A stretch of 64,000 bases of DNA, taken from NCBI GenBank assembly GCA_003510435.1, contig DOMK01000013.1:12135-76134 (forward strand). The letters run 5' to 3'. This document shows, one piece after another, positions 1,625 to 56,040 of this stretch. Position 1 is the first letter of the stretch. Every line of letters starts with the position of its first letter. Made by a program: the position numbers and the translations under genes. Source of the DNA: Candidatus Magasanikiibacteriota bacterium. Lineage in GTDB: Bacteria > Patescibacteriota > Patescibacteriia > Magasanikbacterales > UBA922. The notes below the pieces were generated by a model. It ran no database searches. It saw nothing but the letters and a program-made list of their open reading frames with translations, and had not been told where the DNA came from.

Positions 1625-4174
1625 ATGAATCCTGAACAACTTTTGGAACGCTTTTCTACCCATCTCCGTACTGTGGTCGCCAAAGCTATGGCGATGGCCA
1701 CTTCCCTATCACATGACAAGGTCACCCCAGCTCATTTGTTTGTGGTTTTGTTAGAAGAAAAAGGCTCGATTGCCAATGAAATTTTGAGTAAGCTCAATAT
1801 TAATCCTGATTTTATTTATAAAATTTTAGATAATAAGCCAGAACTAGTAAACCAAAATATAAAAATCCAAACCGCCACTCTGCCAGAATTAAATTTGATG
1901 AGTAAAAAAATCTTAGAGAAATCCATGCTCCTAGCTTATGAGAGAAACCATACCCATATTGGCACCGAGCATTTACTCTTGGGTATGATCTATAGTACAG
2001 ACAAAGATATAAAAGATATTTTGCATAATTTTAAAATTAATATTGCTGATATTGAAGAAGAGATAGAAAATATTCTCCAGAGCACATCCAAATTCCCAGA
2101 TATTGATGACGTCTCCAATATGATGGATCAATTAGAAGGCTTAGTTGGTGGCGACAATTCTTCGGCCATGCCTCTACCCCCTGCTTCGATGAATCAACCA
2201 GAACAAAATCAAATTAGTAGACCAAAAATGAAAAGACCTAGTGTGACGGCTTTGGATCTTTTTACTAATAATCTAACTAATCCGAGTAATCAAAAAAATA
2301 TTGATCCAGTCATTGGTAGAGAAAAAGAAATTGAACGCGTAATAAATATTTTGGCCAGACGAACAAAAAATAATCCAGTGTTGATTGGCGAACCAGGTGT
2401 AGGTAAAACTGCCATTGTAGAAGGCTTGGCCAGAAGAATTACCGAAGGTGATGTACCAGATGTTTTAAAACGCAAAAAAATTCTTTCTCTTGATCTCACT
2501 TTAATGCTTGCTGGCACTATTTACCGTGGTGAATTTGAAGCTAGACTCAAACAAGTAATTGATGAAGTGACCAAATCACCAGATTGTATCCTTTTTATTG
2601 ATGAACTCCACAATATTATTGGCGCTGGCTCTAGTCAAGGTGCTATGGATGCGGCTAATATTTTGAAACCCGCCCTAGCTCGTGGTAGCCTACGCTGTAT
2701 TGGCGCGACCACGATTGATGAATACAAAAAACATGTTAGCCACGACCCTGCTCTAGAAAGACGTTTTCAAGCTATCAATGTAGAAGAACCAAGTAAAGAG
2801 GAAACTGAACAAATTTTACAAGGCATCAAAAAATATTATGAAAATTTTCATAATGTAAAAATTACTGATGAAGCTATTACTACAGCTGTAGAATTGAGTG
2901 TTAAATATATTCATGATAATTTCTTGCCTGATAAAGCGATTGATCTCTTGGATGAAGCCTCGGCCGCCATAAAAGTAAAAAATAAATTATCCAATCATGA
3001 AATCAAACGACAAAAATTATTAGATGAAATTGATCATTATAACATTCAAAAAGAAGAGAGTATTAGAACCGAAAAATTTGATGACGCCAGTGTATGGAAA
3101 AAACGCCTGGAGGGAGTTAATAAAAAATTACAATCTTTGGAAAAAATTATTAGTAAAGCCAAACAGCCACTCCGAAAAAAAGTGATGGGTGCTGATATAG
3201 CCAAAATTTTGGAAAACAAACTTAATATCCAAGCTAATATTTTATTACAAAATGAATGGGATGAACTAGAGACTTTACCAAACAGATTAAAACAAAATAT
3301 TATTGGTCAAGACGAAGCTATAGAAAAGATCGTAAAATCTTTGAAACAATCATATTTGGGACTAAAGGACAATAAAAAACCTCTGGCATCATTTGCTTTC
3401 ATTGGCCCGAGTGGAGTAGGTAAAACTGAAATGGCCAAAATTTTGGCCAAAGAACTTTATCATGATGACAAAGCTCTAATAAAACTAGACATGAGTGAAT
3501 TTTCTGAACAACATAGTACTTCTAAATTACTTGGTTCGCCGGCTGGCTATATTGGTCATAAAGAACGTAACCATTTTACTGAGGAAATTAGAAAACGACC
3601 TTATTGTGTGGTTTTGTTTGACGAGGTTGATAAAGCCCATGCTGATGTAACCAAACTCTTGTTACAAATTTTGGACGAAGGCGAACTGACTGACAGTGCA
3701 GGCAAAAAAACTCATTTCCACCATGCTCTAATTATTCTCACCACAAATTTAGGCGCAGAACTATTCAAAACCACTGGCATTGGTTTTGGTAAAGTTGAAG
3801 CTAATAGTAAAGATCGTGATAAATCAATTGTAAATAAACTAAAAGAAGACCTCTCTTCAGCTCTAATCAACCGTTTGGACAATGTAATTATTTTTAATCC
3901 TCTGACTAAAGCTGATATAAAAAATATTGTGGCTAAAAATTTTAAATTAATCAATGAAAAATTACAAACCAATAATAAATTATCTATCAAAGCTACTAAC
4001 CAAATATTATTAGATCTAAGTAAAGATAGTTTTAATGTAGAAGAAGGTGCTAGACAAGTAGAAAGAATTTTGCAGGATATTATCCAAGAAGCCGTCATTG
4101 AAATCCTAAAGAAAAAACAAAATAAACAAAATTATTCTCTAGTGAAAAAAGCTGGGAAATATAGTCTAGTATGA
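1625..4174 (+). CDS. clpC: ATP-dependent Clp protease ATP-binding subunit, ClpC type
   Basis: 849 aa. Clp N-domain, two AAA+ modules with Walker A GEPGVGKT and GPSGVGKT, and a short middle region with a UVR-like segment ([12 protein letters not shown]) typical of ClpC rather than ClpB. Confidence 0.85.
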
Positions 4175-4545: not shown

Positions 4546-6395
4546 AAACTCCTCCGCCCAATTCAGACCAAAAAAGACAAATTATGGGAGCAATCCTTAG
4601 TCAGATTGTGGCCAAACAAATACTCCCGGCTTTATTAAAAGAAGAATTTGCTAAACATCTAATAAACCCAGCAAATTTTCTACCAAATTCAATAAATGAA
4701 ACTCTGGCCGTAGATCCAGCTCAATATATCAGCCCTGTCCTTTCTAATATAGGCATGCAAAACCCAAACATAAATCCTAAAGACATTGTTGGTAATTTTG
4801 GATCAAATAATTCTAGTTTACAACCATCAACCACAGCTGATTCAACTATTCCAAACCAAGGTGGTAATACTGGAACTTCAACTCCAGATACCACACCACA
4901 GGCAGATGCTGACCAAAATGGATCTCCTGCTAATAAAAATGGTCAATCAAAAAATGATTCAGACCAACCACAGGCAGATGCAGATGCAGATAAAGACAAA
5001 GAAAATCCTGATGACGATGATAAAAAAAATGAAGCCAAAAATCCAGAAGCAACGACTGATTTAAATAATCTTGATACGCCAGCTGATAAAGCTGTTAATA
5101 CAGATCAACCGACTGGTTCTGGTCAAAATCAAAATGTACCTGGATCAACCACCCAGCCTGGACAACAAGTTGGTCCTGGTGGTGTGGTAACCAATCCAAC
5201 TCAAGCAGGAGCACCTGGACAAAATACTCCTGGGAGTAATACACCAAATTCACCAACCACACCAGGAGCTAATGCTCAACCTGGTATGAATCCAAATGTT
5301 AGTAATCCAGATACAAAAGATGATAATGCAGATGCAGGCAAAGATGAAAATATTGATGAGGACGATAAAAAACCAGATGAAGACAAACTAGATGGTGAGG
5401 GTGATGATAAAAAAGAACCTGATGATAAAGATAAAGACGGTGACAAAAAAAATGATGAGAATGATAAAAATAGTGGTGACAAAACAAAACCAGATGAAAT
5501 ACCCTCAGGTTATTACGACCCTTATGCCAATTCAAAAGATGGTACGCATGCGGGATATTTTAATCCTGATGCGTCAAAAGAACAAACACCAGTCATAGAT
5601 GAAACAGGAAGAGACAGAGGAGCTACCATAACCCCAGAAAAAAAACCAGGGGATGGTTATTACGACCCTTATGCCAATTCAAAAGATGGTACGCATGCGG
5701 GATATTTTAATCCTGATGCGTCAAAAGAGGACGAAGATAGGGATGAAAGCAGTGACTCTCCATTTGGTGTTGAAAACCAAGACTTTGGCGGTATGAATAT
5801 GCCAAATCAACAAGAAGACCAGGAATCAGATGACGATACTCCACAAGATGGTAAAAGTGAACAACAGCCAGATAAAAAATCAGATTCTGATAATGACGAA
5901 CAAAAAGAAAAAAAACAAAAAATGGAAAACGAAAAAGGAAGCATGACTCAATTTATAAATCAAAATATAATAAACAGAACAAAGATAAACGGCCTAGAAC
6001 AAGAGATAAAAAATTTAGAAAACCAAGCTAATGATCTAAATAAAAAAAATGATGATTTAGATAAAAAAATTAAAGAATTGGAACCAGAATCAATTAAAAA
6101 ATTAAGGGGCATACAAACATTTATGGGAGGTTGTAGTTGTTGTTCTTGTATTTTTTTACCCATATCTCTTATTTCCTCAATATCAACAGCCTTAATTGAA
6201 TTATTTATCCAAATTAAAAAAAAGAAAGAACATGAAAATAAAGCTGAGATTGAAAAACTTGAAGAAGAAAAAAAAGCAAATACTAAAAATCTTAAACAAA
6301 TTAATAAACAAATTAATAAAATAGCTAGGGATATATACAATTTGCGAAACACAGGAATGATGAAAGGAATGGCCAATAATATGTTCAGACACTAG
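4542..6395 (+). CDS. hypothetical acidic low-complexity protein with an internal exact repeat and a C-terminal Cys-rich hydrophobic segment
   Basis: 617 aa, rich in P/T/G/D/K/N. The 25-aa unit GYYDPYANSKDGTHAGYFNPDASKE occurs twice. A C-terminal coiled coil flanks GGCSCCSCIFLPISLISSISTALIELF. Confidence 0.45.
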   Translation: MKTPPPNSDQKRQIMGAILSQIVAKQILPALLKEEFAKHLINPANFLPNSINETLAVDPAQYISPVLSNIGMQNPNINPKDIVGNFGSNNSSLQPSTTADSTIPNQGGNTGTSTPDTTPQADADQNGSPANKNGQSKNDSDQPQADADADKDKENPDDDDKKNEAKNPEATTDLNNLDTPADKAVNTDQPTGSGQNQNVPGSTTQPGQQVGPGGVVTNPTQAGAPGQNTPGSNTPNSPTTPGANAQPGMNPNVSNPDTKDDNADAGKDENIDEDDKKPDEDKLDGEGDDKKEPDDKDKDGDKKNDENDKNSGDKTKPDEIPSGYYDPYANSKDGTHAGYFNPDASKEQTPVIDETGRDRGATITPEKKPGDGYYDPYANSKDGTHAGYFNPDASKEDEDRDESSDSPFGVENQDFGGMNMPNQQEDQESDDDTPQDGKSEQQPDKKSDSDNDEQKEKKQKMENEKGSMTQFINQNIINRTKINGLEQEIKNLENQANDLNKKNDDLDKKIKELEPESIKKLRGIQTFMGGCSCCSCIFLPISLISSISTALIELFIQIKKKKEHENKAEIEKLEEEKKANTKNLKQINKQINKIARDIYNLRNTGMMKGMANNMFRH

Positions 6396-9535: not shown

Positions 9536-12136
9536 CTACTCCAAATGTACTCCATCTTCCCAATCCCTCACTTTACTTACAAGTGAAGGATTTTTTTTGA
9601 AGTCAATTCCTCGTGCCAAATCACGTGATAATTTTATCAAATCCATATCCTGCATGGTGGCGAGTTTAAAAGGTGGTAGACCACTCTGGCTTGTGCCATA
9701 AACTTCACCCGGGCCACGAGTTTGGAGATCATACTCAGCAATTTTAAAACCATCAGTATTTTGAGAAAAAAATTGCAATCGTGCCAAAGATTTTTCATTG
9801 TCAGTGTCAGTAAATAAAAAACAATATGATTGATGTAAAGCTCTACCCACCCGACCACGGAATTGATGGAGCTGGGCCAAGCCAAACCTGTCTGCGCCTT
9901 CTATCATCATCACGACAGCATTAGGAATATTTACTCCCACTTCTACGACTGATGTGGAAACTAGTATATCTATTTTTCCACTCGCAAAATCAGCCATAGT
10001 GTTTTCTTTTTCATTTGGCTTTAATTTGCCATGTAAATAACCAACACGTAAATCTTTAAATATCTCCTCAGATAATTTTTTATATTCACTCATTACACTT
10101 TTTTTATCTAAGGAGTAAGGAATAAGGAGTAAGGAATTATTATCAACAAAATCATCATCACTTTTTCCTTTTTCCTTTTTCCTTTTTCCTTCATCAATCA
10201 ACGGACATATCACAAACACCTGTCTCCCCTGTTTAACTTGTGAACGAATAAAATCATAGGCCTTGTTTCTATTTTCACTATCTACCACTCTAGTATCAAT
10301 TGCTTTTCTACCCACTGGCATTTCATTAATAATAGATAAATCCAAATCACCATACAAAGTAAGAGCAAAGGATCTGGGAATCGGGGTCGCAGTCATAGAC
10401 AACAAGTGAGGCCTCATTGCTGACTGACGCAGACTAGACGCAGACTCATTATTACCACGGGCAATATCATAAACAATTCTTTGAATATCCACGCTCTCGT
10501 GAGAAAAATTTATTAACAAAGCCAACTTATACAGTGATCCTTTTAAATATGTCCAAACCTGTCTATTTTCTCTACTACCAACAAACGGAAGGGCTTTTAA
10601 TTCAATGATAATTTTATCTTCAACCACAAAATCTGGACGATAAATTCCTATTTTTTTATTTTCATATTTTATATCTAATACTTTTTCTTTTTCAAATTTT
10701 ATTCCTTCTTTTTTAAATTCCTCTTCCAATGCATTTTGATAAATTACTTCTTTATGTCCTAAACCTAAATTCTTTTTAACATTAAAAATACATCCTCTTA
10801 TTTTGTAAGTCAAATCTTTATATAAAAATCCACTTTTACTTTCCTTCTCCTGTTGTTCTTCCTCTTCTGCGTCGTCTGCGTAAGTCTGCGTAAGTCTGCG
10901 TCGTTGTTCTACTCCGAATCGATGTTGTTCATCTATAATTACTAAACCTAAATTTTTAAACTGTACTTTTTCTGATAATAGAGCGTGGGTTCCAATAATC
11001 AAGTTTATTTGCCCAGTTTTAATTTGTTTAAGTAAATCTTTTTTAATCAAAATACTAGAAGATCGGTGATCACTGATCACTGATTGAGAACGTGTCAACA
11101 GCGCTATTTTAACTTTATCTTCCAACAGCTTTGTCAGCGAATCAAAATGTTGCACGGCCAATATCTCGGTCGGCGCCATTATCACTGCTTGATAATTATT
11201 CAAAACTGTATTATAAAGCGCCATCGCTGCCACGACAGTTTTTCCACTTCCCACATCACCTTCTAACAATCGATTCATAGGTTCATTTTTTTCCAAATCA
11301 CGCAAAATATCCCAAGCCGACACTTTTTGGGCTTTGGTAAGCTGAAAAGGTAAAGAACTAACAAACTCTTTTATTTTTTCTTGCTGAAATTTTATTTCCC
11401 AAGCTTTTGATCGTTTCAAAGATTGACGAATCATTTCCGCGCGTAATTGTAAAATAAATAGTTCTCCAAATTTCAAACGCTTTTTTGCTTGATTTAAGTC
11501 TATTTCATCTATTGGAAAATGGATACCACGCACCGCTTCGGCCAGATAAATCAAATCTGCTTTTTCTAAAATTTCATCTGGTATCCATTCTTTTAGTAAA
11601 TCATGAGTCAAATAAATTATTTGACTAACTAAAAACCTTAATTGTTTATTAGTAACTCCAGTCGTGAGATGATAAATTGGGACAATCCTGGCAGTATGGG
11701 TAGTGTTTTTTTCTCCCAAAGCTTTTTGTTTGGTTTCTTTTTCATAAGACGGCGATGCCATTTGTTTGCCTAGTTTTCCAATTGATAATTTGCCTGATAG
11801 ATAAACTGTATCACCAGGTTTAAAATTCCGAGTAATAAAAGGCTGGCCAAACCAAACAATTTTTAATTTTCCAGTTTCATCATAAACAATCGCCTCTGTC
11901 ATAATTGTTCGTCTTTTAAAAATCCGCCGATTGGAAATAATCTCTATTTTCGCTTTAATTGTCACTTCTTCCCCTACTTCCAAATCAGCAATATTCTTGG
12001 TACTACTATAATCTTGATAGCGAAAAGGTAAATAAAACAACAAATCCTGAATAGTATTTATACCAAGATTTTTTAAATGCCTTTCCATCTTTTTGGCAAT
12101 ATGGTTGATTTGTCCAATAAGTGTGTCTAATTGCAT
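9536..12136 (-). CDS. recG: ATP-dependent DNA helicase RecG carrying an in-frame PD-(D/E)XK (GxxExxY-type) domain insertion
   Basis: 866 aa. Walker A GSGKT, DEQH box, MTATPIPR motif III and an N-terminal wedge region. About 165 extra aa lie between DEQH and motif III. Confidence 0.85.
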   Translation of the reverse strand: MQLDTLIGQINHIAKKMERHLKNLGINTIQDLLFYLPFRYQDYSSTKNIADLEVGEEVTIKAKIEIISNRRIFKRRTIMTEAIVYDETGKLKIVWFGQPFITRNFKPGDTVYLSGKLSIGKLGKQMASPSYEKETKQKALGEKNTTHTARIVPIYHLTTGVTNKQLRFLVSQIIYLTHDLLKEWIPDEILEKADLIYLAEAVRGIHFPIDEIDLNQAKKRLKFGELFILQLRAEMIRQSLKRSKAWEIKFQQEKIKEFVSSLPFQLTKAQKVSAWDILRDLEKNEPMNRLLEGDVGSGKTVVAAMALYNTVLNNYQAVIMAPTEILAVQHFDSLTKLLEDKVKIALLTRSQSVISDHRSSSILIKKDLLKQIKTGQINLIIGTHALLSEKVQFKNLGLVIIDEQHRFGVEQRRRLTQTYADDAEEEEQQEKESKSGFLYKDLTYKIRGCIFNVKKNLGLGHKEVIYQNALEEEFKKEGIKFEKEKVLDIKYENKKIGIYRPDFVVEDKIIIELKALPFVGSRENRQVWTYLKGSLYKLALLINFSHESVDIQRIVYDIARGNNESASSLRQSAMRPHLLSMTATPIPRSFALTLYGDLDLSIINEMPVGRKAIDTRVVDSENRNKAYDFIRSQVKQGRQVFVICPLIDEGKRKKEKGKSDDDFVDNNSLLLIPYSLDKKSVMSEYKKLSEEIFKDLRVGYLHGKLKPNEKENTMADFASGKIDILVSTSVVEVGVNIPNAVVMMIEGADRFGLAQLHQFRGRVGRALHQSYCFLFTDTDNEKSLARLQFFSQNTDGFKIAEYDLQTRGPGEVYGTSQSGLPPFKLATMQDMDLIKLSRDLARGIDFKKNPSLVSKVRDWEDGVHLE

Positions 12137-14799: not shown

Positions 14800-16200
14800 A
14801 TGACTACACCAGCCAAAATTGATTTACAAAAATTACCCGTGATCGCCCTCGTCGGTAGAGTTAATGTCGGCAAATCAACTCTTTTTAATAAACTAATTGA
14901 AAGTAACAAAGCCATTGTCTCCGATGTCCCTGGAACTACCAGAACCAATAATGAAGGCACAATTCTTTGGCGCGGAAAATATATAAAAATAATTGACACT
15001 GGTGGTCTCACTTTTGAAGATGATATTCCTCTAGAAGAAGACATTGTGATCCAAAGTGAACGGGCCATGAAAGAAGCAGATATTATACTTTTTATAGCTG
15101 ATGTTGAAGATGGCATCTTACCCCAAGAAAGAGAACTGGCCAAAAGAATGCGTCGAATAATTACCAAACCAGTAATCCTCGTGGCCAACAAAGTGGATAG
15201 TGAAAAAAAAGCTATAAATTTGAATGAGCCAGAATGGATGAAACTGGGTTTAGGTGAACCTTTTTCTATTTCAGCGGCCAATGGCAGAAACACCGGCGAC
15301 CTTTTGGATTATATATACAAAATTTTAGGAAAAATAAAAATTACTCCAAAAAAATTATCTCAAACCAAAGACAGACCAATTGATGTCAGCATTATTGGCA
15401 AACCAAATGTTGGTAAATCTTCTTTATTCAATAAATTAATTGGCCAAGAAAAAGTTATTGTCAATCCAATGGCTCACACCACGCGCGAACCACACGATAC
15501 TTTAGTAGATTATGAATATAAAGTAGGGGCAAAGCTCGTAAACCAAAAAATAAATTTTATTGATACCGCTGGTATAAGAAGAAAAGCCAAAGTAAGTGGC
15601 AAACTAGAAAAAGAAGGCATTAGTAAGAGTATCCAATCAGCCGAACAATCTGACATTATTCTTTTGATAATAGATGGGGCAGAAATTATTTCCTCTCAAG
15701 ATATGCAATTGGCCGGATTACTAGAAAAAAGATCCAAAAGCGTTATAATAATAGTAAATAAATGGGACTTGGCCGAAGATAATTCTGAAACCGCACGTAA
15801 TAAAGTAAAAAGAATGGTTTATTCATTTTTCCCTCATCTAGATTTTGCTCCCATGGTTTTTACTAGTGGCAAAACAGGCTATCGCGTTCATGATATTTTT
15901 CCACTATTAATTCAGGCTTGGAATGCCAGACAAACTTCTATCCCCAATCCTGTTTTGGATAAATTTATTCAAACTGTTCAAGCGACCCACCTACCATCAC
16001 GTGGTAAGGGTACCAGACAACCTACTCTACTGGGTATGACTCAAGTGAATATTGCTCCACCAGTTTTTCAAATTATTGTAAAATATAGAACATCTCTGCA
16101 CCGGTCTTATCTAAATTTTGTAGAAAACAAATTAAGGGAGCAATTTAATTTCTTTGCCTGCCCAATTGTGATAAAATTAAGTAAGAGTAAAAAAGTATAA
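14800..16200 (+). CDS. der: ribosome-biogenesis GTPase Der (EngA)
   Basis: 466 aa. Tandem GTPase domains (GRVNVGKSTLFN and GKPNVGKSSLFN, each with DTAG) plus a C-terminal KH-like domain. Confidence 0.9.
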   Translation: MTTPAKIDLQKLPVIALVGRVNVGKSTLFNKLIESNKAIVSDVPGTTRTNNEGTILWRGKYIKIIDTGGLTFEDDIPLEEDIVIQSERAMKEADIILFIADVEDGILPQERELAKRMRRIITKPVILVANKVDSEKKAINLNEPEWMKLGLGEPFSISAANGRNTGDLLDYIYKILGKIKITPKKLSQTKDRPIDVSIIGKPNVGKSSLFNKLIGQEKVIVNPMAHTTREPHDTLVDYEYKVGAKLVNQKINFIDTAGIRRKAKVSGKLEKEGISKSIQSAEQSDIILLIIDGAEIISSQDMQLAGLLEKRSKSVIIIVNKWDLAEDNSETARNKVKRMVYSFFPHLDFAPMVFTSGKTGYRVHDIFPLLIQAWNARQTSIPNPVLDKFIQTVQATHLPSRGKGTRQPTLLGMTQVNIAPPVFQIIVKYRTSLHRSYLNFVENKLREQFNFFACPIVIKLSKSKKV

Positions 16201-16245
16201 AATAATACTAATAATAAATACGAATTATACTGATGCTATACAAAT

Positions 16246-16647
16246 ATGAATAATACTGGAGAAAAATTAATTTATCCGGATTTATCTTATAAAATAAATG
16301 GAATCCTCTTTGCCACCCATAATGAATTAGGCCCCTATGCCAGAGAAAAACAAATTGGTGATGTAATAGAAAAATTATTAAAAGAACAAGAAATACCCTA
16401 CCTCAGAGAATGTCAAATTGGCAATAGCGGAAATGTATTGGACTTTATTATAGATAATAAAATTATTCTTGAACTAAAATCAAAACGTTTTATAATAAGA
16501 GCAGATTATGAACAAACACAAAGGTATCTGCAAGCCACCCAGCTTAAACTTGCGATCTTAGTCAATTTTAGGACACAATATCTTAAACCAATCAGGATAG
16601 TAAAAATAGATACTCAATTTAAAGAAAAATTCATAAAAAAATATTAG
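16246..16647 (+). CDS. PD-(D/E)XK nuclease-like protein of the GxxExxY type; paralogue of the recG insert
   Basis: 133 aa with a D..ELK core (DFIIDNKIILELK). It aligns along its length with the domain inserted in RecG (for example YKINGILF~YKIRGCIF and LAILVNF~LALLINF). It is bracketed by inverted repeats. Confidence 0.55.
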   Translation: MNNTGEKLIYPDLSYKINGILFATHNELGPYAREKQIGDVIEKLLKEQEIPYLRECQIGNSGNVLDFIIDNKIILELKSKRFIIRADYEQTQRYLQATQLKLAILVNFRTQYLKPIRIVKIDTQFKEKFIKKY

Positions 16648-16686
16648 TATAGCATCAGTATTATTAGTATAAATTAGTATATTAGT
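16648..16686. repeat. 39-bp A/T-rich repeat (tatagcatcagtattattagtat...attagt), copy 1, directly upstream of pth
   Basis: Near-identical to 17340-17380. Its core ctgatgctatac also occurs inverted at 16226-16241, upstream of the GxxExxY gene. Confidence 0.7.
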
Positions 16687-17226
16687 ATGAAACTAATCAT
16701 CGGCCTAGGCAATCCAGGCAAACAATACCAAAAAACCCGTCATAATATTGGTTTTATGGTTCTTGATGTTTTATTAGAAAAATTAGCGTCTGAAGCCAAA
16801 TGGGAATTGTCAAAAAAATTCAATGCCGAAATCTGTGAACTAAATTTTAATAACAACAAAATTATTCTCGCCAAACCCATGACCTTTATGAATGCTTCAG
16901 GCGAAGCTACTCAACTAATCACTCACTTTTACAAACTGACTCACGAAGATCTAATTGTAATTCATGATGACAAAGATTTGAAACTTGGTGATATTCGTGT
17001 TCAAACCGACAGATCCGATGCCGGCCACAATGGTATCAAATCGATTATTCAACACTTGGGTACACAAAATTTTACCAGAGTAAGAATTGGTATTGCTAGT
17101 GCCAATGAAAAAAAGATGAAAGATACGGCTGATTTCGTTTTAGGAAAATTCGGCCTTTTAGAAAAAAAAAAGGTGCAAGAAATAATAAACAAAAGTATTG
17201 AAGAAATAAAGACATTAATCATGTAA
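16687..17226 (+). CDS. pth: peptidyl-tRNA hydrolase
   Basis: 179 aa. N-terminal GLGNPG..Y..TRHNIGF signature and a conserved HDD region. Confidence 0.9.
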   Translation: MKLIIGLGNPGKQYQKTRHNIGFMVLDVLLEKLASEAKWELSKKFNAEICELNFNNNKIILAKPMTFMNASGEATQLITHFYKLTHEDLIVIHDDKDLKLGDIRVQTDRSDAGHNGIKSIIQHLGTQNFTRVRIGIASANEKKMKDTADFVLGKFGLLEKKKVQEIINKSIEEIKTLIM

Positions 17227-17339
17227 CATATATCACTTATCACATAACAAATTTAAAATCAAAATCCGCTGGTTAGACGGATTTTATTTTTTCCTTACAT
17301 GCTTTCTAAAAACCAATTTTTATGCTATTATAATATTCG

Positions 17340-17380
17340 TATAGCATCAGTATTATTAGTATTAATTCGTATATTAGCAT
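17340..17380. repeat. copy 2 of the 39-41 bp repeat, directly upstream of dprA
   Basis: gtatagcatcagtattattagtattaattcgtatattagcat matches 16648-16686 with a few substitutions. Confidence 0.7.
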
Positions 17381-17384
17381 CGAA

Positions 17385-18464
17385 ATGCGCAAAGAAATCC
17401 TCCTCTCCTACTTCCCAAAAATTACTTCCCGACGCTACCAGCAATTGGTGGCCGTTTTTGATAATTTAGATAATGTTTGGAATGCAAATAGAGATGAAAT
17501 TATAAAAACTGGCTGGAAAGAAGACATTGTTGATCAATTTTTTATTTGGAAAGAAAAACTGGATGAAAACAAAATAGAACGAATTATAGAACAAGAGGAA
17601 ATATATTGCATAACAAAAGATGATGATAATTATCCAGCTTTGCTTAAAGAAATTTATGATCCCCCATTTTGTTTATTTGTCCGCGGTGAATTCAAGCCTG
17701 ATGACTTTTCTTTGGCCGTGGTTGGTACCAGAAAATTTTCTCCCTATGGTAAACAAGTGACAGGAGAATTAGTTTCTGAATTGGCTCACCAAGGCATCAC
17801 TATTATTAGTGGATTAGCCATTGGCATTGATTGCCTAGCTCATGAAGCTACTCTCAAAGCTGGTGGAAAAACAATTGCTGTGCTTGGCAGTGGTATAAAT
17901 AAACAACATATTTATCCTGGACAAAATAAAGATCTAGCCGAAAGAATAATCAAGTCTGGTGGAGCTCTGATATCAGAATATCCCCCGGGAACTCTGCCTT
18001 CAAAATTTACTTTTCCCCGTCGAAACCGCATTGTGGCTGGCATGTCCTTAGGAACACTGGTAATTGAAGCCCCAGAAGGCTCTGGAGCACTAATTACGGC
18101 TCAATGTTCACTTGATAATGACCGCGAAGTCTTTTCTGTACCACAAAATATAAATAGTGCCAATTCCTCAGGCCCAAATGAACTAATCAAAAATGGCGCC
18201 CAATTGGTCACCAAAGCTAGTGATATTTTAGACGCTCTAAATTTACAAGATGTAAAAAAGTATATTTCTAACCAAGCCATCATTCCTGATTCTCCTGTAG
18301 AAGCCAAAATATTGGACAACCTAACCCGCGAACCAATCCATATTGATGAACTAACAAAAAAATGTGAACTTGACAGTTCTAGTACAAATGCTACACTTAT
18401 ACTTATGGAAATGAAAGGTAAAGTGAGGAATCTGGGTGGAATGATGTACGTTTTAGGGCGATAA
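17385..18464 (+). CDS. dprA: DNA-processing protein DprA (Smf)
   Basis: 359 aa. Rossmann-like DprA core (GLAIGIDCLAHEATLKAGGKTIAVLGSGI) and a C-terminal winged-helix-like tail. Confidence 0.85.
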   Translation: MRKEILLSYFPKITSRRYQQLVAVFDNLDNVWNANRDEIIKTGWKEDIVDQFFIWKEKLDENKIERIIEQEEIYCITKDDDNYPALLKEIYDPPFCLFVRGEFKPDDFSLAVVGTRKFSPYGKQVTGELVSELAHQGITIISGLAIGIDCLAHEATLKAGGKTIAVLGSGINKQHIYPGQNKDLAERIIKSGGALISEYPPGTLPSKFTFPRRNRIVAGMSLGTLVIEAPEGSGALITAQCSLDNDREVFSVPQNINSANSSGPNELIKNGAQLVTKASDILDALNLQDVKKYISNQAIIPDSPVEAKILDNLTREPIHIDELTKKCELDSSSTNATLILMEMKGKVRNLGGMMYVLGR

Positions 18465-25019: not shown

Positions 25020-25127
25020 CATTGATTTCACTGATTAATAAATGATTACACAGAAAAACTCCTCAACAAATGTTGAGGAGTTTTTTAATCTGCGAAATCA
25101 TTTTTCAAAATCAGTGAAATCAATGTT
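25020..25127. repeat. TIR-bounded spacer element (gcattgatttcactgatt ... aatcagtgaaatcaatg), family copy A
   Basis: The termini are inverted repeats of each other. The same termini recur at 36381-36470, 41489-41532, 48480-48552, 52760-52844, 54564-54661, 55518-55626 and 58459-58565. Confidence 0.65.
25054..25086. terminator. bidirectional intrinsic terminator between convergent genes
   Basis: aaaaa-ctcctcaac-aaat-gttgaggag-tttttt: a 9-bp stem with A- and T-runs on either side. It lies at the centre of the 25020-25127 repeat element. Confidence 0.65.
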
Positions 25128-39187: not shown

Positions 39188-39239
39188 AATAATTTACAAT
39201 AAAGCATTAAATCAAAAAAACAAAATTTGTTTTTTTGAT

Positions 39240-39914
39240 TTATTGTTTTTTTGATTCTTTATATCCTACTTCCTGACTATAAAAATTAATACTATCTGCG
39301 ATTAAATGCATATCATCCATACCATAAGTCACCAACCCAAACCAAATTGAACCATAGGCATATGAATTAACAAGCATTGGATTCCAAACTTTATGCTCTT
39401 TGATAAACAAATCCAATGATAAACTCGCCCCATCATCCCCCAGATATGAATGATTAACTATCGCTCCACTCATAACTGACCAAGGAATAAAACAACTACG
39501 AAAATAATCTTTTCTAAGAATCCCTTCTGGACCAATATAAATAAAATAATGATTTATTTTCTTTTGTAACCAACTAGGAAAAAACCAGTAGCAAAGCAAT
39601 GAATAATAAAAAAAATAAATAATTAATAATATTGCAACTGGTATAAACCACTTCATTTTTAACCAGACATAAGTTAAAAAAGAAACTCCACCGCCCAAAA
39701 CAAAAATAAAAACAATTAAAAATGCAAAGAAAAAACTAGTCATTAAAATTGTCATGAACAAACTTTTTTGTGGATTGGGTCTAAAAACCTTACCGGAAAC
39801 TTGTTCGTTTTTAACAATTTTTTCGCTTAAACTACGCAAATTCTCTGGTAGTTTTTGCCATTTACCAATCTCAATTTCTTTGTAAAATAAGCTGTAAAAC
39901 CAAAGTGAAAACAT
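39240..39914 (-). CDS. hypothetical membrane protein
   Basis: 224 aa with 3-4 TM helices. No motif recognised. Confidence 0.35.
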   Translation of the reverse strand: MFSLWFYSLFYKEIEIGKWQKLPENLRSLSEKIVKNEQVSGKVFRPNPQKSLFMTILMTSFFFAFLIVFIFVLGGGVSFLTYVWLKMKWFIPVAILLIIYFFYYSLLCYWFFPSWLQKKINHYFIYIGPEGILRKDYFRSCFIPWSVMSGAIVNHSYLGDDGASLSLDLFIKEHKVWNPMLVNSYAYGSIWFGLVTYGMDDMHLIADSINFYSQEVGYKESKKQ

Positions 39915-47819: not shown

Positions 47820-48479
47820 TTATTTCAAAATTTTTTCAATTTCCTTATCAACTTTATCAATATCAATCTCACCATCTACAGTTTTTAAGACTCCCAAATC
47901 TTGGTAATAATCCAAAATTGGTCTAATGGCTGTATTCCCTTGTTCAATAATTCTCTTTTTGGCTGACTCGGGATTATCATCTTCACGAATTATTAATTTA
48001 CCCCTACATTCTGGACAATCAAACTTGGCTTCATTTTCTAGAGAATAAGGCAATATATATCCACAATCTGGACAAATTTTACGTCGAGTCAAACGATTAA
48101 AACTAGTCTTGTCAGATAAAGCAATTTCAATTACCAAAATTTCATTTTCTAAACGCTTGTTAGTAAAATATTCTTGGTATTTTTTGGCTTGCTCTACATT
48201 GCGAATCGCCCCATCTAACAAAACCCCTCTACCTGAATCTAAATTTTTATCCATAGCCGAAAAAGCTAGCTTGTATATCAAATCATCAGCTACTAGTTTA
48301 CCAGCTTTCATGTCATCTAATTTTTGTTTATCTGTTGGGTCAGCATTTGGATCTTTATCCAAAGCGCGCAATAAATCTCCAGTGGAAATATGCGCCAAAT
48401 CATATCGACCAACTAATTTTCTTGCTTGGGTGCCCTTACCACTCCCGGGGACGCCCATTAATATTATTACTTTTTTCAT
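47820..48479 (-). CDS. adk: adenylate kinase with a Zn-lid
   Basis: 219 aa. P-loop GVPGSGKGTQ and lid cysteines CPDCG...CPEC. Confidence 0.9.
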   Translation of the reverse strand: MKKVIILMGVPGSGKGTQARKLVGRYDLAHISTGDLLRALDKDPNADPTDKQKLDDMKAGKLVADDLIYKLAFSAMDKNLDSGRGVLLDGAIRNVEQAKKYQEYFTNKRLENEILVIEIALSDKTSFNRLTRRKICPDCGYILPYSLENEAKFDCPECRGKLIIREDDNPESAKKRIIEQGNTAIRPILDYYQDLGVLKTVDGEIDIDKVDKEIEKILK

Positions 48480-48552
48480 AGCATTGATTAAAACTGATTT
48501 AGACTGATTTAAACGATTAAATTTCTGTTTTAATCTGTCTAAATCAATGCTT
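48480..48552. repeat. TIR-bounded spacer element, copy D (gcattgattaaaactgatttagactgattt ... ctgtctaaatcaatgc)
   Basis: Near-identical to 52760-52844 over about 70 bp. Confidence 0.7.
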
Positions 48553-48834
48553 TTACAATTGATTATAATAATTTTTAAACACTGTCATTAATCCTTCTTT
48601 ATCATCATGACTTATTTTTCCACTAACACGTAAATGATGCAACACATCACGAATCTTTTGCAAAGAAATCATATGCTGACCATCACGAGCAGCCAAAATA
48701 GCCAATTCTACGGTTTGTTCATCATGATAATTTAAAGAAGCTACTTTATGTTGTGAAACCAAATGTCTGACAGCTTCACTATGTAGATGATGTCCTGTGG
48801 TAGAATATTTTGTACTAGAGCCAAATATTGACAT
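48553..48834 (-). CDS. hypothetical His-rich small protein
   Basis: 93 aa with many His residues (HHLHSE, HHLRV). No motif recognised. Confidence 0.35.
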   Translation of the reverse strand: MSIFGSSTKYSTTGHHLHSEAVRHLVSQHKVASLNYHDEQTVELAILAARDGQHMISLQKIRDVLHHLRVSGKISHDDKEGLMTVFKNYYNQL

Positions 48835-52210: not shown

Positions 52211-52759
52211 TTAACTAGCAGATTTAGCCGCTGTCTTACCTTCTTTACGGCGGATAACTTCTTCAAGATATTTAATTCCTTTACCTTTGTAAGGTTCTGG
52301 TTTTCTAATTTTTCTTACTTCGGCTGCTACATTACCCAACAATTCTTTATCAGAACTTTCCAATGTAATTAGATTCTTTTCTACCCCAGCTGTCACCGTG
52401 TTTGGAATTTTGTAAATTACTGAATGGGAAAAACCAACTTCCAGTTTCAAATCTTTACCTTGCATGGCCACTTTATAACCCACACCATTAATTTCTAATT
52501 GTTTTTTAAATCCAGTTGTTACACCAGTCACCATATTTTGGATGTGAGAAGAAAAAGTTCCCCACAAAGAACGTTCCGATTTTTCATCTTCATTTTTAAC
52601 TGATACAGAAATAACGTTGTCCTCAATCTTAACACTCACTTTATCATTAAGCTTGCGAGTCAAAGTTCCTTTTGGACCTTTTACCAAAATTTCATCTGCT
52701 TTTAGATCAACGGTTACTCCAGCTGGAATTTGAATTGTTCTTTTGCCTATACGTGACAT
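52211..52759 (-). CDS. rplF: 50S ribosomal protein L6
   Basis: 182 aa starting MSRIGKRTIQIPAGV. Confidence 0.9.
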   Translation of the reverse strand: MSRIGKRTIQIPAGVTVDLKADEILVKGPKGTLTRKLNDKVSVKIEDNVISVSVKNEDEKSERSLWGTFSSHIQNMVTGVTTGFKKQLEINGVGYKVAMQGKDLKLEVGFSHSVIYKIPNTVTAGVEKNLITLESSDKELLGNVAAEVRKIRKPEPYKGKGIKYLEEVIRRKEGKTAAKSAS

Positions 52760-52844
52760 AGCATTGATTAAAACTGATTTAGACTGATTTCAGATAATTA
52801 AACATCTGTTTTAATCTGTCTAAATCAATGTTTATTTAGTTTAT
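52760..52844. repeat. TIR-bounded spacer element, copy E, between rpsH and rplF
   Basis: gcattgattaaaactgatttagactgatttcagataattaaacatctgttttaatctgtctaaatcaatg. Confidence 0.7.
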
Positions 52845-53237
52845 TTAATATACTGAACAAATAATTTCTCCACCAATACCCAATTTACGAGCTTGCTTAT
52901 TAGTCATAAAACCTTGTGAAGTGGATATAACCGCCACACCAAAGTCATTCAAAATTCTCGGCATTTCCTCGGATTTGCGATAAATACGATAACCTGGCTT
53001 ACTCACCCGAACCAAAGATCTAATTTGTGGTTCTCGGTCATTGTATAAAAGCTCAATGGTTAATTTCTTTACTGGCTTTTCTTCCACAATTTCAACTTTG
53101 CCCACATATTTTTCTTGAGCCAAAATATCAGCAATCGCTTTTTTTACCTTTGAAAAAGGTAACACAATATTTGCCCGTCTTGATAATTGGGCATTGCGTA
53201 TGCGAGTTAACATGTCTGCGATAGGATCGGTCATCAT
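52845..53237 (-). CDS. rpsH: 30S ribosomal protein S8
   Basis: 130 aa starting MMTDPIADMLTRIRNA. Confidence 0.9.
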   Translation of the reverse strand: MMTDPIADMLTRIRNAQLSRRANIVLPFSKVKKAIADILAQEKYVGKVEIVEEKPVKKLTIELLYNDREPQIRSLVRVSKPGYRIYRKSEEMPRILNDFGVAVISTSQGFMTNKQARKLGIGGEIICSVY

Positions 53238-54242: not shown

Positions 54243-54563
54243 TTATTCTATATATTCACCACTAACTTTAGCAACACGTTTTTTTTCATTACCTTCCTGC
54301 TTGTAACCAACTCTAGTCGCCTTACCTGATTTTGGATCCAACAACATTACATTGCTGATACTAATTGGCGCTGGTAATTCGATTATTTGTCCTTTTTCAC
54401 CTTGTTTTCTAGTTCGCATGTGTTTCTTTAAAATATTCACATCTTCAATAACCACAAATAATTTTTGACTAGATTTATTTTTTAAAACCTGAATAACCTT
54501 GCCAGTCTTTCCACTGTCTTTTCCTTTTATAACTTTTACTTTGTCACCGGTTTTAATTTTCAT
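54243..54563 (-). CDS. rplX: 50S ribosomal protein L24
   Basis: 106 aa with a KOW motif ([20 protein letters not shown]). Confidence 0.9.
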
Positions 54564-54661
54564 AACATTGATTTCACTGATTTATTATATTTGATTACAC
54601 TGATTTGGAGGATGTCTTTTATATCTGTGAAATCCATTTCCAAATCTGTGCAATCAATGTT
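54564..54661. repeat. TIR-bounded spacer element, copy F, between rplN and rplX
   Basis: acattgatttcactgattt ... tgtgcaatcaatgtttta. Confidence 0.65.
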
Positions 54662-55033
54662 TTATAAGACTTCAGGCGCTAATGAAATAATTTTTTGGAA
54701 ACCTTTGGTTCTAAGCTCTCTAGCGACTGGTCCAAAAATACGTGTTCCTTTTGGTTCTTTACTTTTTTTGTCAATAATTACAGCGGCGTTATTATCAAAA
54801 CGGATATATGTACCATCCTTACGACGCATTTCTTTTCTTTGACGAACAATCACAGCATGAACAACATCACCTTTCTTTATGGCGGCACGTGGAGCAGCTT
54901 CTTTGACAGCACAAGTAATTACATCACCAAGGAAGGAATAACGTTTTTTATACCCACCCAAGACACGAATACATTGTAATTTTTTTGCGCCAGAATTGTC
55001 TGCCACTTCTAACATTGATCTATGCTGGATCAT
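54662..55033 (-). CDS. rplN: 50S ribosomal protein L14
   Basis: 123 aa starting [18 protein letters not shown]. Confidence 0.9.
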
Positions 55034-55325: not shown

Positions 55326-55517
55326 TTACTTCTTATTTTTAGCATTTAACAAAGTCAAAATTTGAGCAACTATTTTTTTATTATTACGAATTTCTCTTAC
55401 TTTTTTTAGCTGATTCTCACTAGCTTTAAAACGTAACTCACGAACTTCTTCTCTCTTTTCTGATAATAGATCTTGAAGTTCTTTTATACTTTTATTTTTT
55501 AAGTCCTTAAAATCCAT
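55326..55517 (-). CDS. rpmC: 50S ribosomal protein L29
   Basis: 63 aa, helical. Operon position. Confidence 0.85.
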   Translation of the reverse strand: MDFKDLKNKSIKELQDLLSEKREEVRELRFKASENQLKKVREIRNNKKIVAQILTLLNAKNKK

Positions 55518-55626
55518 ACAACATTGATTTAACTGATTTATATTGATTTCACAGATTACTTACGTATTTTTTGATTATCAATTCGTATTCAGTGTAATCT
55601 ATTTTCTTAATCTGCGCAATCAATGT
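55518..55626. repeat. TIR-bounded spacer element, copy G, between rplP and rpmC
   Basis: acattgatttaactgattt ... atctgcgcaatcaatgttt. Confidence 0.65.
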
Positions 55627-56040
55627 TTAGTCCTTTTTAATAAATTTAACTTTGGTTGGTAATTTATAACCACTCAAGAGTAAAGCTGTTCTAGCTTCGC
55701 TTTCCAAAATACCATCCATTTCCATCATTACTGTACCTGGTTTGATAGTACAAACATAATGATCCGGTGCACCTTTACCTCCACCCATTGGAACTTCGCT
55801 ACCTTTTTTTGTTACTGGTCTATCAGGAAAAATTCTAATCCAGATCTTACCACCACGACGAACATAACGAGTCAGTACACGACGAGCTGCTTCAATTTGA
55901 CGAGAGGTCACCCAAGCATGATCAAGAGCAACAATACCAAAAGCGCCAAAAGCTAAAGTGTTTATACGGCTGGCCACTCCTCTATTCTTATGACGTGGCT
56001 TGTGCCATTTTCTATGTTTTACTTTCTTGGGTAACAGCAT
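55627..56040 (-). CDS. rplP: 50S ribosomal protein L16
   Basis: 137 aa starting [14 protein letters not shown]. Confidence 0.9.

Follow-up and report, generated by a model that had tools for sequence, protein, structure and literature searches.

The DNA analysed here (the window) is a stretch of 64,000 nucleotides, AT-rich in composition (34.6% G+C), from contig DOMK01000013.1 of a Candidatus Magasanikiibacteriota bacterium. Between two conserved essential genes, der and pth, it carries a small gene for a predicted nuclease, bracketed by inverted repeats and placed in the gene order lcp-der-[nuclease gene]-pth-dprA. Is this an ordinary host gene with regulatory repeats or a mobile element, and, if the latter, how could an element move when a nuclease is all that it encodes? 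A previous examination of the letters alone (the sequence-only reading) had proposed a minimal selfish element. We consider it about 70% probable that the der-pth spacer is a copy of a family of nuclease-driven mobile foldback elements, which has spread widely in bacteria of the candidate phyla radiation (CPR). The locus consists of the following parts.

14800..16200, plus strand: der (engA), host gene on the upstream side, touching the left arm with its stop codon TAA (16198-16200)
16201..16245, plus strand: left arm, made of ACNAAT-type iterated units (ATACTAAT, TACGAAT, ATACTGAT), with the inner core ATACTGATGCTATAC
16227..16241, plus strand: left copy of a perfect 15-nt inverted-repeat core (partner 16647-16661)
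16246..16647, plus strand: nuclease gene, 133 aa, of the GxxExxY / PDDEXK_3 type, with E34, D66, E76 and K78 intact
16642..16686, plus strand: right arm, GTATAGCATCAGTAT followed by iterated ATTAGTAT units, with the family terminus ATATTAGT(AT) at its end
16647..16661, plus strand: right copy of the perfect 15-nt core (partner 16227-16241)
16687..17226, plus strand: pth, the downstream host gene; its ATG directly follows the right terminus

The 133-aa open reading frame (ORF) between der and pth was confirmed by ORF calls and by Pfam and NCBIfam; its start codon is the first ATG past an in-frame stop. The unit of which it is part is larger than the approximately 420 bp first proposed: it measures 486 bp (16201-16686) and fills the entire spacer. 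The left arm starts one base past the der stop codon, and its outer two units are degenerate when compared with the family terminus, while the right arm overlaps the TAG stop of the nuclease gene with its inner end and abuts or overlaps the pth ATG with its outer end. As to the inverted repeats themselves, the left copy was correctly placed (tatactgatgctatac at 16226-16241), but the right one starts at 16647, i.e. at the G of the TAG codon, and not at 16650. In full, the arms are 39 nt long with 85% complementarity (16209-16247 against 16641-16679). The flanks of the nuclease gene reach a complementarity score of 20, as against a maximum of 9 for 58 other genes of the window (mean 6.5, sd 1.36), and, when closed by a tetraloop, the arms fold with z = -9 versus shuffles. 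A promoter and terminator scan inside the element gave no excess over shuffles; it probably lacks a promoter of its own and is transcribed as part of the operon.

Evidence that this unit is an insertion comes from related genomes. Scanning species-representative genomes for Der yielded 43 related Magasanikbacteria loci that hold both der and pth, across which the order lcp-der-pth-dprA is kept. When GxxExxY ORFs were sought between the two genes with a hidden Markov model of the family, the gene was missing in 42 of the 43 loci; the sole other occupied one (L046) encodes a protein only 47% identical, with a variant arm. The spacer measures 0-12 nt in 15 of the 43 loci, so that der and pth must ancestrally have been nearly abutting. 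In the closest relative (L019), whose Der is 91% identical in protein and approximately 85% in nucleotides, similarity to the window extends up to the der stop codon and sets in again with the pth ATG, the spacer between them being unrelated in sequence. Relative to its relatives, the der-pth nuclease gene is an insertion, the window copy being one such case, in which the gene is intact and the left end slightly worn. The comparison of empty sites suggested in the sequence-only reading therefore speaks against an ordinary conserved gene, the more so as a related insert in the recG gene of the window (see below) is likewise missing from the recG of every relative that spans the site (six of six).

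When metagenomes were scanned with 38 aligned homologues of the nuclease, 80 loci were obtained, which revealed that the same arms accompany the gene elsewhere. We found 58 distinct elements with the terminal motif RCNAATATACNAAT inverted at both ends and preceded by GAT; of the 16 other entries, four are cut by contig ends. The search for termini was anchored on RCNAATATACNAAT, so the GAT lies outside the anchor; it is kept in 40-58 of the 58 elements on each side, and conservation stops 3-6 nt further out. The elements are 417-560 bp long (mostly 445-495 bp), and each arm comprises about five iterated octamers (ATACNAAT-like) at a spacing of 8-10 nt. Grouped by similarity of the flanking proteins, they fall into at least 38 contexts, e.g. 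nusG|rplK, DUF2229|BcrAD-type genes containing inteins, MatE/methyltransferase and der|pth. The presence of the same arms in so many unrelated contexts, together with the empty loci of relatives, bears out the proposal of a minimal selfish element of a mobile family. Two metagenome loci (L100 and L101), the closest relatives of the window copy, have ORFs 91% identical in nucleotides between unrelated flanks. In P0005, a homologue with 75% identity, the neighbouring genes are unrelated and the bracketing repeat measures 47 nt; its core (TTATACTAATGCTATAC) differs from that of the window at one compensated position.

The left end of these elements is mostly found 0-3 nt past the stop codon of the gene upstream, and the distance from the right end to the ATG of the gene downstream is mostly 2-6 nt. 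Neighbours share the orientation of the nuclease gene in 45 of 48 cases on the upstream side and in 43 of 50 on the downstream side. No target-site duplication beyond chance was detected, as the direct repeat flanking the element is 0 nt long in 36 of the 58 cases and 1 nt in 14. A CG/AT context seen beside CGAT-type termini (11 of 15 cases) yielded no consistent rule. Several GxxExxY copies or clades may share one contig (the window, L001, L101, L148, L150 and L184). L150 holds two copies (1112-1605 and 2368-2861), whose ORFs are 70.5% identical in nucleotides and whose arms are 96-98% identical. About 110 nt past the stop codon are near-identical as well (96-100% for the arms and this stretch), and extra tandem right arms follow each copy. 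In L001, two GxxExxY elements of different clades (357-749 and 3001-3405) occupy successive spacers of one operon, in which the DUF2229 and BcrAD_BadFG genes each hold an intein with a LAGLIDADG domain, so this locus is dense in selfish nuclease elements.

The only ORF of the der-pth element matches PDDEXK_3 (PF13366; E 7.5e-17, 62.2 bits, cutoff 22) and GxxExxY (TIGR04256; 55.8 bits, cutoff 35), and Pfam recognised nothing else in it, i.e. no transposase of a known class. The catalytic residues E34, D66, E76 and K78, which make up the PD-(D/E)XK core (helix Glu, D, ExK), are invariant across the 38 homologues. The literal GxxExxY motif is not present in the der-pth copy, which reads G29-PYAR-E34-KQ-I37 (GPYAREKQI, i.e. 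GxxxxExxI; clade consensus GxYAREKQY), while the RecG insert has the canonical form GHKEVIY. The AlphaFold2 model (mean predicted local distance difference test, pLDDT, 89; predicted template modelling score, pTM, 0.81; element order H-H-E-E-E-H-E-E) confidently predicts a PD-(D/E)XK fold. Its nearest solved folds in a Foldseek search of the PDB are Cas4, lambda exonuclease, the RNA-splicing endonuclease and Hjc, all distant (E approximately 1e-3, TM approximately 0.5), with the homing enzyme I-Bth0305I (3r3p) among the weak matches. Since these neighbours are merely generic for the fold, no functional subtype could be assigned from structure, and a sequence search of the PDB with the nuclease gave no match. 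The protein is under strong purifying selection: nonsynonymous divergence (dN) between element ORFs is 0.15-0.17 and synonymous divergence (dS) 1.2-2.2, the latter being saturated. PADLOC returned no defence-system match for the nuclease, and its only PHROG match was phrog_5928, of unknown function. The PDDEXK_3 family as a whole is large, with 4,690 representative clusters at E <= 1e-3 in a profile search of 1.84 billion representative proteins. In most elements of clade A a GGAGG-like stretch encoding Gly-Gly (16258-16268 in the window) lies 2-3 codons ahead of the conserved core LIYP..., and the called ORF of P0003 begins right at this core (MIYKELSY); the functional start codon of some copies may therefore be further downstream than annotated.

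The window contains a single other match to the nuclease, inside the recG gene:

10395..10905, minus strand: second element, in recG, of another clade; PDDEXK_3 core 10472-10828, arms 10874-10902 and 10419-10446

The insert occupies residues 440-553 of RecG (9536-12136, minus strand), between helicase motifs II and III, which makes the window recG 150 codons longer than that of its relatives. As stated in the sequence-only reading, it is a paralogue of the 133-aa protein (31% identity, E 1.3e-11), and it matches PDDEXK_3 of Pfam with E 1.8e-31 (109 bits). The two copies had been taken as a sign of recent activity; with 31% identity they belong to different clades, and so provide no evidence of recent activity in this genome. 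The difference between their inverted repeats, once regarded as atypical, is what the family leads one to expect, since each clade has its own conserved arm unit: ACNAAT for the der-pth clade and ACGC(A/T)GACTT (ACGCAGACTT) for the RecG clade. The arms of the RecG insert are inverted iterated ACGCAGACT(T) units, stop-free in the frame used. Its boundaries are ambiguous: either the residues EKSG|NN of relatives are split around the core (EKESKSG[core]GNN), or the whole element lies between QR and MR with the loss of nine host residues. The CAATGAGG of relatives also matches just past the right arm. Pfam found PDDEXK_3 but no Hint domain in the insert, and its boundaries (VEQRR|RLTQT and QSAMR|PHLL) show no obvious splice-junction residues; presumably it is retained in the mature protein.

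Most members of the RecG-insert clade are free-standing, and iterated ACGC(T/A)GACTT, the unit of the RecG insert, flanks the closest of them (P0121, 63% identity). A word-indexed protein search with the RecG insert did not include the RecG of the window itself (100% identity) among its 120 best matches. Two partial LepA/EF4 proteins carry a domain of this clade in frame, after translated ACCGCAGAC units. The contig with the LepA in-frame copy (L179) switches abruptly to an unrelated G+C-rich sequence from about position 750, inside the nuclease domain; as this is probably a chimeric assembly, the analysis was restricted to its left half. Members at a greater distance, two of them in one Omnitrophota contig, are flanked by inverted arrays of GCACAGAT, CCGCAAA, CGCTGAT or ACGCAGAT. 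The arm unit thus differs in sequence by nuclease clade, its general form being roughly RCNRAT.

Invasion of coding sequences is not confined to RecG. Many of the best matches of the profile search, read at the protein level, are long host proteins with an embedded domain (P0353, P0350, P0359, P0254, P0262, P0268, P0293, P0283 and P0253): the clade-A domain was found in frame in GatB (at two sites), enolase, an RseP/M50 protease, three GT1/GT4 glycosyltransferases and two further RecG proteins, in which the clade-A nuclease occupies the same loop as the insert of the window RecG. The host peptides on either side carry translated arm units, ...TN...TN... before the domain and ...IR/IS... after it. 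Because the arms have one frame that is open and in phase with the nuclease, insertion with read-through is possible. The GatB protein P0353 also contains, at residues of approximately 33-64, an apparent in-frame hairpin without the ORF, with the same arm peptides as in its full insert.

Such ORF-less derivatives were also identified between genes. Four hairpins, consisting of a left arm, a loop of 3-4 nt (22 nt in L114) and a right arm, share a contig with ORF-bearing elements (L120, 58-150; L159, 786-872; L011, 4072-4151; L114, 803-894), and in three of the four contigs the hairpin arms are among those closest to the co-resident ORF-bearing element. In L062 the der-pth junction itself is occupied by a copy with arms of the same family but neither the ORF nor a remnant of it inside; its right arm is 88% identical to that of the window and 96% to that of L011. 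Hairpins also lie just before dprA in L060 (115 nt) and, in partial form, in L021. The window, too, has an arm copy in this position:

17335..17384, plus strand: solo copy of the right arm (ATTCGTATAGCATCAGTATTATTAGTATTAATTCGTATATTAGCATCGAA), past the pth terminator hairpin and directly ahead of the dprA ATG

The stretch of approximately 85 nt that contains this solo arm is not found in the closest relative, L019. Beside it, near position 17321, there is a possible 8-nt remnant of a left arm (TTATGCTAT). A single TATTAGTATA/ATACTAAT unit at 1485-1500, which abuts the start codon of a minus-strand gene (127-1485), may be a remnant or a chance occurrence.

Foldbacks built of other units are also common. 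At least five ORF-less foldbacks of another family, with the structure ACATTGATT..ACAGATT..loop..AATCAGT..AATCAATGT, are present in the window:

25020-25125, plus strand: ORF-less ACATTGATT foldback
48470-48565, sense on the minus strand: ORF-less ACATTGATT foldback
52758-52846, sense on the minus strand: ORF-less ACATTGATT foldback
54560-54665, sense on the minus strand: ORF-less ACATTGATT foldback
55500-55630, sense on the minus strand: ORF-less ACATTGATT foldback

In the ribosomal-protein region, several of them occupy a whole spacer, between the stop codon of one gene and the ATG of the following one. The unit of this family (ACAGAT/ACTGAT) is similar to those found in the arms of other GxxExxY clades, and the family also occupies the der-pth spacer of L044, L038 and L037. 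This junction hosts different foldbacks in different lineages: among 13 relatives with a spacer of at least 80 nt, 10 have one that folds end to end (z <= -3) and is built from other iterated units. In L019 the der-pth spacer (5402-5542) is an ORF-less foldback of AAAGGCC / GGCCTTTCC units, with CCTTTCCGG occurring three times, and the pth-dprA spacer contains direct GTGTGATACGTG repeats.

How might such an element spread? The data show a selfish unit of arms and nuclease gene that is mobile both horizontally and within genomes, with ORF-less derivatives. A full element, of approximately 445-495 bp, consists of an arm of about five octamers, a gene for a nuclease of about 130 aa and the same array inverted. 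We propose that the nuclease would bind the iterated units of both arms and cut DNA of its own family. The break would arise at a site that carries an arm, or within or next to an ORF-less hairpin, the centre of a hairpin being the palindrome that the ORF interrupts, and would be repaired from an ORF-bearing copy; homology could be supplied by the 45-nt arms or, between related genomes, by the flanking host genes. Rarely, a whole foldback would be seeded into a new stop-start junction or a permissive protein loop, possibly by cutting at the sharp GAT termini or at an extruded cruciform, followed by host repair. In compact genomes only insertions that leave both flanking genes intact would survive, which would explain the placement from stop to start codon. 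A hydrolytic PD-(D/E)XK nuclease cannot by itself join DNA; since, in addition, target duplications were not found, break-induced copying is the best-supported route. It fits the minimal loops of the hairpins, the lack of target duplication, the case of GatB protein P0353 and the two copies of L150, with their near-identical arms and diverged ORFs. Absent duplications, ORF-less hairpins and the L150 arms are likewise compatible with recombination-mediated spread, which the sequence-only reading had envisaged.

Several observations weigh against a mobile nuclease-driven family. An enzyme unable to join DNA requires host functions or another step for the seeding of new sites. All ACATTGATT foldbacks of the window are co-oriented with genes, which hints at an RNA-level or strand-specific constraint outside our model, and the bias in orientation and position of the ORF-bearing elements may partly reflect the selection of intact ORFs by protein similarity. 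The window itself has one copy of the der-pth clade plus a solo arm, and the strict terminal motif is missing from the left end of that copy. Beside the junction, the identity of der or pth to L019 (approximately 15% diverged overall) shows no clear dip of the kind that co-conversion would leave, and a scan of viral contigs with the family alignment found no relative.

The best-surviving alternative draws on repetitive extragenic palindromic sequences (REPs) and the doublets they form (REPINs), with their enzymes, the REP-associated tyrosine transposases (RAYTs; together, REPtrons). By analogy, the hairpins would be the real dispersed repeats, possibly acting as mRNA stabilisers or processing sites where genes meet, and would be maintained or spread in trans by a semi-domesticated nuclease, whose gene lies within one of them and whose main role would not be to copy itself. 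In REP/REPIN-RAYT systems the enzyme gene likewise lies between inverted short repeats, which also occur without it as intergenic hairpin doublets, and no target duplication is evident (PMC2817692, PMC3116915, PMC5581495). Such an arrangement would account for the co-occurrence of ORF-less hairpins and solo arms with ORF-bearing copies, for the homogenised arms and diverged ORFs of L150, and for the abundance of other foldbacks, at least five of which in the window either take up a stop-start spacer or terminate immediately ahead of an ATG, with end-to-end foldbacks making up 10 of the 13 long der-pth spacers. We nevertheless regard it as unlikely. RAYTs are typically single-copy and vertically inherited (PMC5581495), whereas the nuclease genes are patchy in distribution, multi-copy and represented by several clades per contig, also in frame inside genes. 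ORF and arms generally diverge together, elements 91% identical lie in unrelated contexts, and it is difficult to conceive of a host function that would be served by invading essential genes in frame. The systems also differ in their components: the RAYT is a tyrosine transposase of the HUH type that is associated with one palindrome, the enzyme described here a PD-(D/E)XK nuclease of approximately 130 aa that is associated with arrays of about five iterated octamers.

A second alternative, which we rate as improbable, assigns the arms to RNA. They would pair in the mRNA, loop the insert out, restore translational coupling by placing the der stop beside the pth start, and occlude the start of the nuclease gene, or else form a stem for cleavage by RNase III, as in rRNA intervening sequences. 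The arms can indeed form duplexes of 25-45 bp (-24 to -53 kcal/mol), the element extends exactly from stop to start codon where ancestral spacers had 0-12 nt, and co-orientation with the operon extends even to ORF-less foldbacks. The pattern of conservation argues otherwise. Complementarity between arms is scarcely higher within an element (79.7%) than between elements (76.5%); mismatches on the sense strand show no preference for G:U (73 versus 83, p = 0.47), the commonest oppositions being A/A and G/A, i.e. purine-purine; and at several variable positions the base kept in left arms differs, across elements, from that kept in right arms. Taken together, these features indicate that the sequence and not the stem is conserved. 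The arms are also conserved far beyond the needs of pairing, over at least 38 contexts, and the only hit of an Rfam scan of 15800-17600 was a sub-threshold chance match to OrzO-P (E 0.26) on the pth terminator. An RNA stem may be a secondary property of the arms; as their primary explanation it is disfavoured by the within/between comparison and the absent G:U bias.

To judge from these alignments, the arms are conserved as oriented sequence motifs, in the manner of protein binding sites, and not as pairing partners. Arm identity tracks ORF identity, which means that arms and gene are inherited together. With ORFs 62% identical, arm identity is 0.73, far above the 0.42 of third codon positions. 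The clade-specific arm units argue for sequence-specific recognition. From this co-variation and conservation, we infer that the encoded nuclease is the obvious candidate reader of the arms.

Classical homing is far less probable still. The product of a free-standing homing endonuclease gene would cut a conserved site in der or pth of genomes without the gene, which would then be copied in along with flanking markers, the inverted repeats being incidental. It would share with the elements a nuclease-only ORF, here between two conserved essential genes, presence/absence polymorphism at a conserved site, the lack of target duplication and plausible spread by break repair, and PD-(D/E)XK homing enzymes do exist, including I-Ssp6803I and I-Bth0305I, the latter one of the weak fold matches. 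However, nucleases 75-82% identical, with the same arms, lie between unrelated genes (MatE/methyltransferase, DUF2229/BcrAD and others), so the target cannot be der or pth, and the comparison with L019 shows no clear co-conversion signature. To our knowledge, homing endonuclease genes carry no terminal inverted repeats and have one cognate host site each, whereas conserved arms travel here with the ORF into dozens of unrelated sites, at which the enzymes are 75-91% identical. If the family homes at all, its target must therefore be its own ORF-less hairpin.

That the gene is an ordinary one of the host, equipped with a regulatory inverted repeat and paralogous to a long-acquired RecG domain, is scarcely credible: the gene is intact, under purifying selection and probably co-transcribed with housekeeping genes, but it is missing from 42 of 43 orthologous loci, the closest relative included, the RecG insert is missing in six of six relatives, and the family is scattered over many contexts and hosts.

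Other known systems resemble the mobile foldback family in part. MITEs (miniature inverted-repeat transposable elements) and their parent insertion sequences (ISs) likewise have terminal inverted repeats (TIRs) with a conserved outer terminus, and short ORF-less derivatives that share these ends (PMC10969869). The element differs in having no DDE, serine, tyrosine or HUH transposase and no detected target duplication. Iterated subterminal motifs in both ends, as found here, are known from foldback and hAT/CACTA-type transposons. The smallest insertion sequences known measure approximately 0.7 kb, and a whole coding element of approximately 0.45-0.5 kb is below that size. The Rickettsia palindromic elements are palindromes lying in frame in housekeeping genes and translated as extra loops, as in the present case (PMC10969869, PMC1779305). 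They encode nothing and bring no enzyme, whereas the palindromes described here enclose a nuclease domain in their loop. Inteins, too, place a selfish nuclease domain in frame in essential proteins (here RecG, LepA, GatB and enolase), from which the element insert differs by the absence of a Hint/splicing domain and of obvious splice-junction residues. The intervening sequences of 23S rRNA contain ORFs for S23p four-helix-bundle proteins, flanked by an RNase III stem. They share with the element a small ORF placed exactly between inverted repeats and a sporadic distribution; they differ in fold, in their location in rRNA and in processing at the RNA level, while the arms described here are kept as sequence.

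The element fails a defining test of each of REPIN/RAYT, MITE/IS, homing genes, Rickettsia palindromic elements and inteins. A 2012 survey of the superfamily listed GxxExxY/PDDEXK_3 as being of unknown function, with multiple transfers. The literature searched on GxxExxY, PDDEXK_3/PF13366, TIGR04256 and CPR mobile or palindromic repeats yielded passing mentions only, with no description of these elements, and the family has apparently not been described before. A bolder claim, which we advance tentatively and at slightly less than even odds, is that it constitutes a new class of autonomous mobile element and the smallest known (approximately 0.45-0.5 kb), in which the only protein, a PD-(D/E)XK nuclease of about 130 aa, reads octamer arrays at both ends and which is translationally transparent, either fitting exactly between stop and start codons or remaining open through a host gene, and leaves ORF-less hairpins as both derivatives and landing pads. 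We regard it as a TIR-bounded selfish element with non-coding derivatives, and there is a substantial chance that its enzymology makes it a new class.

The genomes of CPR bacteria (Patescibacteria) are tiny and tightly packed, and known for rRNA and tRNA introns and for inteins, to which the family would add a third kind of parasite. Translational transparency, if true, would let it colonise such reduced, spacer-free genomes. The family would also explain the origin of many 'GxxExxY protein' annotations and of the frequent foldback spacers of CPR genomes, and it links a nuclease family of unknown function to a concrete candidate substrate, the repeats on either side of its gene. Should mobility be driven by the nuclease alone, this would represent new DNA-mobility enzymology and a very compact pair of sequence-specific nuclease and recognition site. 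The copies that lie in frame in RecG, LepA, GatB, enolase, RseP and glycosyltransferases amount to a natural experiment in splice-free domain insertion; at the same time they give rise to artefacts of annotation and alignment in the phylogenomics of CPR bacteria.

Apart from the foldbacks listed above, the window contains a near-perfect 28-nt palindrome (CAATAAAGCATTAAATCAAAAAAACAAA / TTTGTTTTTTTGATTTATTGTTTTTTTG) at 39197-39253, in the spacer between two minus-strand genes.

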